From positions 1,618-65,617 of the forward strand of contig CAMMZC010000004.1 in the NCBI GenBank assembly GCA_946529215.1: a stretch of DNA of 64,000 nucleotides, given 5' to 3'. This stretch comes from an uncultured Clostridia bacterium (GTDB lineage: Bacteria; Bacillota; Clostridia; TANB77; CAG-508). The notes below the pieces were generated by a model. The model was not told where the DNA came from, searched no databases, and saw nothing but the letters and a program-made list of their open reading frames with translations. The position numbers and the translations under genes were made by a program. Below, in pieces: positions 4,978 through 15,112 of this stretch (positions within the stretch are counted from its first letter, which is position 1; the number at the start of each line of letters is the position of its first letter).

Positions 4978-6090
4978 ATGGGTACAAAAGAGTTAGTAAA
5001 AAGCGAAGTAGAAGAATATGCCAAATTTGATTTAATAAGATATGCACAAGTTTGGGAAGATGCAGATATCTTATTAGAAGCTTTGCAAATAAACGAAAAT
5101 GACAATATTCTATCAATTGCATCTGCAGGTGAAAATGCTCTTGCAATGCTTACAAAAAATCCAAATAAGGTTTATGCAATAGATTTAAATTCAAATCAAA
5201 TAGCATGTACAGAATTAAAAAAGATTGCATATAAGTTTTTAAATTATGAAGAATGTATGCAATTAATAGGTGTTTTTGATTGTAGTAATAGAACTGACAT
5301 ATATGACAAAATTAAAAAAGAATTAAGTGATGAATCACAAAAATATTTTGATGAAAATATAGAGATTATAAAAAAAGGAATAATACACACAGGAAAGTTC
5401 GAAAAATATTTTCTAATCTTTGGGCAAAAGGTATTGCCACTAATACATAACAAAAAAACAAGAAAAGAATTATTAGAAAAAAAGACAAAAGAAGCAAGAA
5501 TTGTTTTTTATAACAAAAAATGGAATAACATAAGATGGAATTTATTGTTTAGAATATTTTTCTCAAGAACTGTAATGGGCAAGTTAGGTAGAGATAAAGC
5601 ATTTTTTAGATATGTAAATGTAAATGTTGCTGAGCATATTTTAGCAAGAACAAAATATGCAATAACAGAGTTAGATACCTCAGAAAATCCCTATTTACAT
5701 TATATAATAAATGGTAAATATGAAAATGTGTTACCATTAGCATATAGAAAAGAAAATTTTGAAACGATAAAAAGAAATATAGACAAATTAGTTTTATTAA
5801 AAGAATCAGTAGAGACATTTATAGAAAGAGATGATATAGACTATATTAGCAAATACAATTTAAGTGATATTTTTGAATATATGGATGATACTCAGATGTG
5901 TAAGATATTTGAAAAAATGAATATAAAGTCTGGAAAAGGAACAATTATTGCATATTGGAATATGCTTGCAGACAAGAGATTATCAAAGTATTTTCAAAAC
6001 CTTGAATTTAAAGAAAAAGAGTCAGAGGAATTACTAAAAAGAGATAAAGCATTCTTTTATAGTAAATTTATTGTAGAAGAGATTATTTAA
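4978..6090 (+). CDS. DUF3419/BtaA-like protein (S-adenosylmethionine:diacylglycerol 3-amino-3-carboxypropyl transferase family)
   Basis: The likely start is ATG 4978 (MGTKELV) after the RBS aggag. The track ORF starts upstream at 4918. The segment IRYAQVWEDADILLEALQINENDNILSIASAGENALAMLTKNPNKVYAIDLNSNQIACTELKKIAYKFLNYEE matches, as I remember it, the conserved N-terminal core of BtaA/DUF3419 proteins. Confidence 0.55.
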   Translation: MGTKELVKSEVEEYAKFDLIRYAQVWEDADILLEALQINENDNILSIASAGENALAMLTKNPNKVYAIDLNSNQIACTELKKIAYKFLNYEECMQLIGVFDCSNRTDIYDKIKKELSDESQKYFDENIEIIKKGIIHTGKFEKYFLIFGQKVLPLIHNKKTRKELLEKKTKEARIVFYNKKWNNIRWNLLFRIFFSRTVMGKLGRDKAFFRYVNVNVAEHILARTKYAITELDTSENPYLHYIINGKYENVLPLAYRKENFETIKRNIDKLVLLKESVETFIERDDIDYISKYNLSDIFEYMDDTQMCKIFEKMNIKSGKGTIIAYWNMLADKRLSKYFQNLEFKEKESEELLKRDKAFFYSKFIVEEII

Positions 6091-6105
6091 AGAATGGAGA
6101 AATAA

Positions 6106-13800: not shown

Positions 13801-15112
13801 TATAGAAATAGAAGAAGATGATATTTGTGCAATCATATTTACTTCTGGAACAACAGAAAATCCTAAAGGTGTAATTCTAACTCATAGAAATATATGTTCT
13901 AATGTAGTAAATGTTTCAAAAGTATTTGAAATAACACAAAATGATAGATGCTTATCTGTAGTGCCACTAAATCACGTATTAGAAGGATTATTTTGCTTTT
14001 TACAATCTTTTTATAAAGGCGCACAAAGAGTATTTTGTAACGAATTAGATGAAATAATAAACTATATAAAAAAATACAAGATTACATTTATGGGAGCTGT
14101 TCCAGCAATTTATGAATATTTATATAAACAAAAAGAAGAATTAAAACAAGAAATAAATCATATAAATATGTTTATGAGTGGAGGAGCTAAATTACAAGAA
14201 AATCTTATTAAAGGATATGAAGAAATCGGAATACAATTAGTGCAAGGATATGGTTTAACAGAATGTTCTCCAGTTGTAAGTATAGAAAATAATACTAGTA
14301 GTAAAATGGGCTCGGTCGGAAAAGTAATACCAGGAGTAGAAGTGGTAATAAAAGATCAAGATGAAGAGGAAATAGGCAAAATTTTAGTAAAAGGAGAAAA
14401 TATAACAAAAGGCTATTTCGAAAATGTGGAAGATACTCAAAAAACAATAATTGACGGATGGCTACATACAGGTGATTTAGGTAAAATAGATGAAGAAGGA
14501 TACTTATTTATATGTGGAAGAAATAAAGATTTAATAGTACTTGAAAATGGTAAAAAGATTTTTCCAAGTGAGATAGAAGGTTTATTAAATAAAATAGAAA
14601 ATGTAAAAGAGTCACTTGTTTATGAAAAAGAAAATAAGTTATATGCAAAAATAATTTGCTCAAAAGATATTTTTGAAAATAAAGAAGAGAAAGAAATATA
14701 TCAATTTTTGAATGACGAGATTGAAAAGATAAATGAAAATCTTCCTCAGTTTAAGCGAATTAACGACATTGTTTTATCTACTGAAGAATTGGAGAAAACA
14801 GTAACAGGCAAAATAAAGAGAAACGCTGAATTAGATAAAATTTTTAAAGAAGAACCTATTGATAATAGTGAAAACAATGAAGCTACTTATTTTGGAAAAA
14901 TTAAGAGCATTTTAACAAAACAACTAGGAAATAAAGAAATAAATCTTGAGTCTGAATTATTAAGAGATTTAGGTGCAGATTCTTTAGATTTGGTAGAAAT
15001 ATTTCTTTCTTTAGAAAAAGAATTTAATATAAAAATTACAAAAGAACAAAGAATGAGTGTTAAAAAGGTTAGAGATATTTTGAATATATTACAAAATATC
15101 GAAAAACAATAA
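10847..15112 (+). CDS. Tri-module fusion protein: PEP-utilizing / rifampin-phosphotransferase-like (PPDK_N ATP-grasp plus phosphohistidine swivel domain), an acyl-AMP ligase (adenylation) domain, and an acyl carrier protein
   Basis: aa 1-330 carry PPDK_N motifs ([61 protein letters not shown]). aa ~730-810 form a PEP-utilizers mobile domain with a catalytic His ([48 protein letters not shown]). aa ~870-1330 form an AMP-binding domain ([62 protein letters not shown]). The C-terminus is an ACP with a phosphopantetheine-attachment site ([19 protein letters not shown]). Confidence 0.8.
   Translation: [1421 protein letters not shown]

Follow-up and report, generated by a model that had tools for sequence, protein, structure and literature searches.

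The genome of an uncultured Clostridia bacterium (assembly GCA_946529215.1) contains, within the 64,000-nucleotide stretch analysed here (contig CAMMZC010000004.1, positions 1,618 to 65,617; hereafter the window), a tightly packed block of six genes, and this locus raises the question of what such a combination of enzymes could make. The six genes very probably constitute a single conserved membrane-associated biosynthetic module. It is kept across about 11 phyla and is often headed by a gene for a 3-hydroxy-3-methylglutaryl-CoA (HMG-CoA) reductase-like protein, which is the main point gained beyond a preliminary description of the same DNA. The product is predicted, tentatively and with a probability of roughly 0.4, to be an undescribed prenylated, S-adenosylmethionine (SAM)-derived, N-acylated amino-lipid. 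The module fits no known pathway, and its novelty lies in a new combination of known enzyme families together with one hallmark protein that has no family.

Gene content and conservation of the module

The block (4978–15112, + strand) comprises six co-directional open reading frames (ORFs) in the ORF list of the window, designated here g1 to g6:

4978–6090, + strand: g1, DUF3419/BtaA-like class-I SAM-dependent transferase, 370 aa
6106–7452, + strand: g2, polytopic membrane protein, hallmark of the module, 448 aa
7469–8392, + strand: g3, two-lobed GNAT-family acyltransferase, 307 aa
8434–9927, + strand: g4, stand-alone adenylate-forming (ANL) ligase of the PRK09274/OleC-like clade, 497 aa
9930–10832, + strand: g5, UbiA-superfamily intramembrane prenyltransferase, 300 aa
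10847–15112, + strand: g6 (whole), fusion of phosphotransferase, acyl ligase and acyl carrier protein (ACP), 1421 aa
10847–13405, + strand: g6 N-terminal part, residues ~1–852, three-domain ATP-dependent phosphotransferase of the rifampin phosphotransferase (RPH)/PigC type
13406–15112, + strand: g6 C-terminal part, fatty-acyl-CoA-ligase-type adenylation domain and acyl carrier domain

The preliminary description had reported a seven-gene co-directional operon; the coordinates are exact and the genes do form one tight operon, with intergenic gaps of 15, 16, 41, 2 and 14 nt, but there are six ORFs, in line with the six products that the description itself named. The g4/g5 junction at 9927/9930, given there as a stop/start overlap, reads TAA-TT-ATG and is a 2-nt spacer.

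Related loci were collected with a g2 profile, one genome per species, which yielded 65 loci, all from metagenome-assembled genomes. Of these, 35 are from Clostridia living in the gut of rabbit, sheep, chicken, mouse and human. The other 30 belong to other Bacillota, Acidobacteriota, Chloroflexota, Planctomycetota, Gemmatimonadota, Desulfobacterota, Gamma-proteobacteria (Pseudomonadota), Bacteroidota, Ignavibacteriales, Actinomycetota and Obscuribacterales, about 11 phyla altogether. In 50 of the 65 loci the six genes follow one another on a single strand and span 7.9–8.8 kb, and most of the remaining 15 are interrupted by contig ends or contain proteins just under the score threshold. Just two arrangements exist, g1-g2-g3-g4-g5-g6 in 34 loci and g5-g6-g1-g2-g3-g4 in 16, and they differ only by cyclic permutation. 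Chance adjacency of the six genes is excluded by this conservation, and the neighbourhood conservation that the preliminary description proposed to check across Clostridia extends well beyond that class. Across the phyla the six proteins share 25–48% identity, the catalytic motifs of g1, g4, g5 and g6 are kept, and none of the six enzymes has lost its predicted catalytic residues.

Flanking genes are not conserved in the 30 distant or the 36 Clostridial loci, an HMG-CoA reductase homologue being the sole recurrent extra, which indicates that the six genes represent a self-contained module. Conserved minus-strand ORFs seen in the loci proved to be shadow ORFs. The adjacency of g1, g2 and g3 is unbroken in all loci, with g1 always immediately 5' and g3 always immediately 3' of g2. 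This holds also for the Chloroflexota, which have no g4 or g5 nearby. Four Chloroflexota loci (L044, L045, L046 and L051) comprise only the DUF3419, g2 and GNAT genes, plus an RPH-like gene in L045, and may represent a pathway that has been reduced or split. Downstream of these three genes, L046 and L051 encode a large hybrid histidine kinase.

The HMG-CoA reductase homologue is encoded directly upstream of the UbiA gene in 12 non-Clostridial loci and in both cultured carriers described below. Copies at the head of the operon outside Clostridia include:

L049, 4008–5297: reductase homologue
L064, 3948–5207: reductase homologue
L065, 424–1719: reductase homologue
L068, 5886–7121: reductase homologue

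The three homologues tested match the Pfam family at 1e-106 to 1e-109. The homologues are divergent class-I-like (NADPH-type) proteins and score 301–346 bits against TIGR00533, the equivalog cut-off of which is 441.8; they may be a distinct paralogous subfamily acting on another acyl-CoA substrate. Class-I HMG-CoA reductases are the archaeal and eukaryotic type. No further mevalonate-pathway gene is linked in the reductase-bearing loci.

The complete seven-gene set, in the order reductase, UbiA, RPH-like, DUF3419, g2, GNAT and ligase, was found by tblastn in plasmid records of two cultured organisms, Brevibacillus laterosporus B9 (a 1.38-Mb replicon) and Roseinatronobacter sp. S2 (a 137-kb plasmid), which make the pathway directly testable. 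The Brevibacillus set occupies about 464.5–474.6 kb of NZ_CP011076.1 (minus strand), and the Roseinatronobacter set consists of P8S53_RS20205–RS20230 on NZ_CP121116.1 together with the reductase gene upstream. The RefSeq names of the Roseinatronobacter proteins are generic, namely UbiA family prenyltransferase, PEP/pyruvate-binding domain-containing protein, DUF3419 family protein, AMP-binding protein and, for two of them, hypothetical protein. Public protein clusters give no source name for any of the six window proteins. No curated family fits the gene combination, and it is undescribed in the full-text literature searched, the scope of which left out most subscription journals; the UbiA neighbourhoods of the Lipocone paper are other gene sets. 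The view that the operon matches no characterised pathway thus stands, as does the view that it unites lipid- or acyl-metabolite-type enzymes, given the family assignments below and the conserved contiguity.

Families of the encoded proteins

The hallmark protein g2 has no significant Pfam, NCBIfam or PDB sequence match, whether searched as a single protein, as a 12-sequence profile or as a 71-sequence profile. Its family comprises 3442 representatives at E<=1e-3 in a library of 1.8 billion proteins clustered at 50% identity. It had been called CdsA/dolichol-kinase-like, with PF01148 (CTP_transf_1) suggested as the profile to check; this profile matches neither the window g2 nor any of 71 diverse members at E<=0.01, but motifs and a putative CdsA/CarS-like fold uphold the general affinity and favour the prenol-kinase branch. 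A single homologue (locus L039) reaches 22.2 bits with PF01148, against a cut-off of 24 (E=1.4e-4). All 17 residues invariant among the 71 members fall in the N-terminal half, which carries the motifs E-x-x-R-K-x-x-H, D-x-x-x-A-x-x-G and K-x-x-x-G (K153...G157). R37, K38, H41, D130, A134, G137, K153 and G157 are invariant in the 71 members, and E156 is present in at least 90%. In PfPolK, a Plasmodium prenol kinase related to VTE5 and FolK, an R-K-x-x-H motif forms the "charged clamp" of the cytidine triphosphate (CTP) pocket (PMC10849223). The R37-K38-x-x-H41 motif of g2 corresponds to this clamp. An hhalign comparison aligned the g2 stretch ADSxAALIG..YG...KSxEGS with the CdsA signature at P=0.0096; the E. 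coli CdsA sequence used was provisional, and the alignment is a lead only. A motif scan of the window and the loci for a genuine CdsA gene found none.

The N-terminal half of g2 (~1–222) thus resembles CTP-dependent prenol and dolichol kinases and CdsA/CarS, while conservation is poor in the C-terminal half, a membrane domain with no clear family affinity. An origin of the two halves by internal duplication was rejected (hhalign probability 0.8%). Matches to DUF92, the VTE6 family, are weak and sporadic, occurring in 4 of the 71 members (best E=9e-5) and in L055, and the assignment of the C-terminal half to this family is unproven, resting on weak matches in few members. In Desulfobacterales, Blastocatellia and Saprospiraceae, g2 is only 230–295 aa long and consists of the N-terminal catalytic half (L058, 4871–5656; L059; L060; L061; L063; L064, 9875–10567), suggesting that these lineages can do without the C-terminal membrane domain or provide it in trans. 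From the motifs and the putative fold, we conclude that g2 is a putative divergent member of the CdsA/CarS/prenol-kinase superfamily, with motifs closest to the kinase branch rather than to CdsA proper; its predicted activity is lipid phosphorylation.

The g5 protein matches the Pfam UbiA family (PF01040) with 65.6 bits (cut-off 34.2), and its best NCBIfam match is PRK13592, followed by the BchG/ChlG and the geranylgeranylglyceryl phosphate (GGGP) geranylgeranyltransferase models. The ranking of solved structures by the g5 family profile agrees with this, digeranylgeranylglyceryl phosphate (DGGGP) synthase (6m31, E=4e-6) being the best and chlorophyll synthase the next. Both of these enzymes use a prenyl diphosphate to make a C-O bond. 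The first metal-binding motif reads R74..D77-E-x-K-D81-x-x-x-D85, of which D77-x-x-x-D81-x-x-x-D85 is invariant in 15 orthologues.

The g1 protein matches PF11899 (DUF3419) over nearly the whole profile (positions 3–382 of 385) with 228.4 bits against a cut-off of 28.2 (E=2e-67), confirming its earlier assignment as BtaA/DUF3419-like. It contains the motif SIASAGEN, and S49-A50-G51-x-N53 and D69, which in the class-I fold would bind SAM, are kept in at least 93% of 30 orthologues. More than 70 residues show this degree of conservation (at least 93% of the 30) across many phyla. A natural fusion of DUF3419 and g2 exists in a database protein (P0186); an apparent g1-g2 fusion in locus L057 was an artefact of ORF calling. 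The adjacency to g2 and the natural fusion with it suggest that g1 probably acts on a lipid at the membrane. Single-sequence PDB searches with g1, g3 and g5 were uninformative.

The assignments of g3, g4 and g5 as GNAT, stand-alone AMP-ligase and UbiA proteins likewise hold, all above the Pfam thresholds. The g3 protein matches Acetyltransf_1 (E=1.5e-8, 35 bits, cut-off 21); its GNAT fold spans ~188–292, a conserved N-terminal lobe carries the motif PM(D/N)GNTW..YR, and P77, R87, F176, N179, F190, K240, G254 and R297 are invariant in the family alignment. The g4 protein matches AMP-binding (137 bits, E=7e-40), and the ANL core motifs TSGTTGxPK, YGxTE, TGD and the C-terminal P.D.RH..K are all intact and conserved in orthologues. 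Its nearest curated relatives are the PRK09274 "FACL_like" clade (268 bits, cut-off 478) and then the olefin beta-lactone synthetases of the OleC type, with which it has the ANL motifs in common. With 145 bits against OleC cut-offs of 850–900, and below the PRK09274 cut-off as well, g4 is an orthologue of neither, and the OleC partners OleA, OleB and OleD are absent around it.

The sixth protein is, as first described, a fusion of phosphotransferase, adenylation and carrier domains, with Pfam matches to PPDK_N (3e-56), PEP-utilizers (3e-24), AMP-binding (2.7e-74), AMP-binding_C_3 and PP-binding in 1421 aa. Rph_4th was also called on the g6 protein of a contig identical to that of the window (L066), which occurs in public sheep-associated metagenome assemblies. 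The N-terminal part comprises an ATP-grasp domain (52–278), a central substrate-binding domain and a His swivel (765–835) containing the catalytic His799 (nt 13241) in the motif GSLLSH(S/A)AIV, which is kept in all intact orthologues. Its best PDB match is the Listeria rifampin phosphotransferase (5fbs/5hv1, 1.7e-69), an enzyme type that converts ATP and substrate to AMP, phosphate and phospho-substrate through a phospho-histidine (PMC4844700). The NCBIfam matches of this part include PigC, RedH and Rph, with which it shares the domain architecture and the catalytic His, but it stays far under their equivalog cut-offs (Rph, 323 bits against 999; PigC, 326 against 1300), and the window copy is, in addition, fused to the acyl ligase-ACP. 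Its identity as a phosphoenolpyruvate (PEP) synthase was ruled out by the absence of the PEP/pyruvate TIM barrel (PF02896), which was not reported in g6. The central substrate-binding domain is strikingly conserved across the operon family, implying a single dedicated substrate.

The C-terminal part of g6 consists of an adenylation domain (854–1330), with PDB matches to FadD13 and long-chain acyl-CoA synthetases, and an acyl carrier domain (1351–1412) with the phosphopantetheine attachment site Ser1379 (nt 14981). In most loci, including most of those from Clostridia, the phosphotransferase is a stand-alone gene product of ~843 aa. The ligase-ACP occurs in 13 Clostridia loci, usually as a separate seventh gene, and is absent outside Clostridia; it is fused to the phosphotransferase only in L012, L030 and the window, or 3 of 36 Clostridial loci with the window counted. 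The ligase-ACP is an accessory module outside the conserved core, and so the dedicated ACP with two adenylating enzymes pointed out in the preliminary description does not belong to that core.

Proposed pathway and competing explanations

The prediction of a prenylated, N-acylated amino-lipid rests on several lines. The conserved ANL motifs of g4 point to acyl activation, and the conserved His and central domain of the RPH-like part to a phosphotransfer. The UbiA score above its cut-off and the ranking of structures by its profile, the clamp motif of g2, the near-threshold PF01148 homologue and the linked reductase point to an isoprenoid, and the full-length DUF3419 match with its SAM motif, the g1-g2-g3 adjacency and the DUF3419-g2 fusion point to a SAM-derived head group. 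Two of the six core enzymes, g2 and g5, are polytopic membrane proteins of lipid-enzyme superfamilies. In the proposed sequence of reactions, g2 would act as a CTP-dependent prenol-kinase-like enzyme, phosphorylating a lipid alcohol, probably a prenol. The RPH/PigC-type enzyme would then use ATP, with release of AMP and phosphate, to add a further phosphate or to activate an intermediate, giving a diphosphate donor or an activated acceptor, and the UbiA enzyme would join the prenyl chain via a C-O bond. The lipid would then receive the 3-amino-3-carboxypropyl (homoserine) group from SAM through the DUF3419 enzyme. Finally, g4 would convert a carboxylic acid to an acyl-adenylate and the GNAT protein would acylate the new amine. 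In the subset of gut Clostridia that includes the window, the extra ligase-ACP would supply an acyl chain. The reductase of the non-Clostridial loci could provide mevalonate or reduce a pathway-specific acyl-CoA to an alcohol. An N-acyl aminolipid or a prenylated acyl metabolite, as put forward in the preliminary description, is still the best class of guess for the product, which is here a prediction from the enzyme families.

Several points weigh against this scheme. All its steps beyond the family assignments, their order, the prenyl donor and the acceptor are conjectural. The DUF3419 enzyme could be methyltransferase-like rather than an aminocarboxypropyl transferase, and the OleC-like g4 may make a lactone, ester or amide and not feed the GNAT enzyme. 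The second metal-binding motif of g5 is non-canonical: the acidic, conserved sequence E201..R204-K205..E212-x-x-G-V-x-T-Y takes the place of DxxxD. Phosphorylation of a phosphomonoester by an RPH-type enzyme would be, to our knowledge, without precedent. The window and all Clostridia loci lack the reductase, which can therefore have no universal role. None of the loci has a linked gene for a polyprenyl-diphosphate synthase, a GGGP synthase or a glycerol-phosphate dehydrogenase.

A bolder version of the scheme, which we regard as doubtful, holds that the product is a new widespread class of bacterial membrane lipid, O-prenylated (an ether or ester isoprenoid) and with an N-acylated homoserine-type head group. 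Its enzymes would have an archaeal and plant flavour, with an RPH-type dikinase in a new biosynthetic role, and g2 would found a new lipid kinase family with more than 3,400 sequence clusters.

The likeness of the operon to the archaeal ether-lipid steps catalysed by DGGGP synthase and CarS consists in the proximity of g5 to 6m31, the putatively CdsA/CarS-like fold of g2 (4q2e, 5guf) and the linked HMG-CoA reductase, of class-I type as in archaea. However, GGGP synthase and glycerol-1-phosphate dehydrogenase were not found in the 30 distant and 36 Clostridial loci, the motifs of g2 favour a kinase over a cytidylyltransferase, and the DUF3419, GNAT, ligase and RPH-like enzymes are without archaeal counterpart.

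If the amino-lipid prediction holds, the locus represents an orphan lipid or isoprenoid pathway of gut Clostridia (in ruminants, rabbits, chickens and humans) and of soil and sediment bacteria, distributed over about 11 phyla, and would add a class of bacterial lipids. It would give bacterial DUF3419 proteins a physiological role beyond betaine-lipid synthesis and rifampin-phosphotransferase-type enzymes a biosynthetic one unrelated to resistance or pigments. The pairing of a bacterial prenol kinase with a UbiA enzyme would bear on the use of isoprenoid chains in membranes.

Among the alternatives, the one that survives best, although we consider it unlikely, is a diffusible secondary metabolite such as a prenylated N-acyl amino acid, a lactone or a similar signal or antibiotic, in place of a structural membrane lipid. 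ATP-dependent condensation or cyclisation would then be the task of the OleC-like ligase and the PigC-like enzyme. This would suit the adenylation domain and carrier protein of the window, the olefin beta-lactone synthetases that follow PRK09274 among the relatives of g4, the matches of the phosphotransferase to the prodigiosin ligases PigC and RedH, and the plasmid location in Roseinatronobacter together with the patchy distribution. The ligase-ACP is, however, an accessory that most lineages lack, condensation, thioesterase, ketosynthase and reductase domains are missing, no exporter or regulator is linked, and g2 and g5, both polytopic membrane proteins, come from lipid-enzyme families; the strict retention of six genes over about 11 phyla suits a physiological pathway better. 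A non-ribosomal peptide synthetase was rejected outright, there being only adenylation and peptidyl-carrier-type domains, no condensation or thioesterase domains, and a module that most orthologous operons lack.

Salvage of exogenous isoprenoid alcohols or acids (such as phytol, farnesol or geranylgeraniol released from plant matter in gut or soil), similar to that by plant VTE5, VTE6 and VTE2, overlaps with the amino-lipid scheme and is, as an explanation in its own right, distinctly unlikely. A kinase, a second kinase and a UbiA transfer to an endogenous acceptor would make up the route, with the other enzymes tailoring the acceptor. A prenol-kinase-like membrane enzyme and a UbiA protein are common to the operon and to prenol salvage in plants, cyanobacteria and Plasmodium (VTE5/FolK/PolK, VTE6 and VTE2). 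The genes of VTE5/VTE6/VTE2 salvage are not known to be clustered. The prenol-kinase-like motifs of g2, the sporadic weak DUF92 matches in the C-terminal half of some homologues and the relation of the UbiA protein to chlorophyll synthase would agree with such a role, as would the occurrence of the Clostridial carriers in herbivore and human guts, of the others largely in soil, and the lack of HMG-CoA reductase in the Clostridial operons. Yet g2, for all its PfPolK-type clamp, stays under the PF01148 threshold, its DUF92 likeness is marginal (4 of 71), and any second kinase lacks a clear DUF92 identity. The reductase-like gene in many operons argues for an endogenous supply. Four further enzymes are obligatory partners, and salvage leaves the DUF3419, GNAT and ligase proteins without a role. 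DGGGP synthase and chlorophyll synthase are also closer relatives of g5 than the aromatic prenyltransferases are, and the aromatic acceptor logic of the tocopherol and quinone pathways is missing in the operon.

Modification of the cell envelope appears improbable. According to this explanation, g2 makes or recycles a polyprenyl-phosphate carrier, the UbiA enzyme loads a diphosphate-activated head group onto it in the manner of decaprenyl-phosphate phosphoribosyltransferase, and the ligase and GNAT proteins (with the ACP) decorate a wall polymer as in a Dlt-like system. The UbiA superfamily does include enzymes that accept polyprenyl phosphates, a carrier protein is present in the window and the ligase matches DltA models weakly (E ~1e-26). 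Against this, none of the loci has a linked glycosyltransferase, flippase, MBOAT/DltB-like or wall-polymer gene, the module occurs in diderm and monoderm phyla with very different envelopes, and the UbiA profile comes closest to DGGGP synthase and chlorophyll synthase.

The betaine-lipid option of the preliminary description, namely a btaAB-type operon for diacylglyceryl-trimethylhomoserine (DGTS) or diacylglyceryl-homoserine, is very improbable: g1 does share with BtaA of Rhodobacter sphaeroides the family PF11899, over its full length and with the SAM motif kept, but the window operon and all 67 related loci lack a gene for a BtaB-type N-methyltransferase, btaAB has no need of the other five enzymes, and the partners of g1 are instead the GNAT, UbiA, RPH-like and AMP-ligase proteins and, invariantly, a protein that is prenol-kinase-like and not diacylglycerol-producing.

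Boundaries and surroundings of the operon

Two elements were recognised upstream of the first gene:

4876–4907, no strand assigned: palindromic, G+C-containing hairpin with a 14-bp stem, flanking A/T runs and a T-run (terminator scan and sequence reading)
4904–4977, + strand: promoter-like region with TTTTCA...TATAAT-like hexamers (consensus match only) and an AGGAGA ribosome-binding site ahead of g1

The hairpin is probably the terminator of the upstream gene for a fibronectin-III surface protein and the 5' boundary of the operon. The g1 ORF mechanically opens at TTG 4918; its most likely start is ATG 4978, which sits behind the AGGAGA ribosome-binding site. At the other end, the terminator scan found no terminator-like hairpin 3' of 15112, and a 132-nt gap with a TTGACA-17-TAAGAT promoter-like site (15120–15148) precedes the next gene. 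The G+C content (25–28%) and GC skew are equal within and outside the block, giving no hint of its recent import. An Rfam search found no RNA element in the window.

Directly 3' of the operon (15245–17527, + strand) are genes for two membrane proteins (DUF2975 and DUF4153) and for a small HTH_26/HTH_3 regulator, which maps to 17378–17587 on the identical contig L066; they have their own promoter-like site and are not kept beside the operon in other loci. On the 5' side (14–4875, + strand), extending up to the hairpin, are genes for a fused ABC-ATPase/FtsX permease, which on the full contig L066 measures 1092 aa, and for a secreted protein of 897 aa that contains MBG and fibronectin-III domains. 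Several related Clostridia loci likewise have FtsX permease and ABC ATPase genes upstream, whereas those of other phyla do not.

Farther away, an ORF of 1643 aa (45409–50340, + strand) has no Pfam family at E<=1e-5, and the 439-aa ORF after it (50318–51637) shows only a weak partial aldehyde-dehydrogenase match. A gene for an MMPL/RND-family transporter (60562–62619, + strand) is located 45 kb from the operon. Other bacteria export lipids with MMPL proteins, but related loci gave no sign of such a gene being linked to the operon. The remaining genes of the window include the housekeeping genes uvrA, recD2 and asnB.

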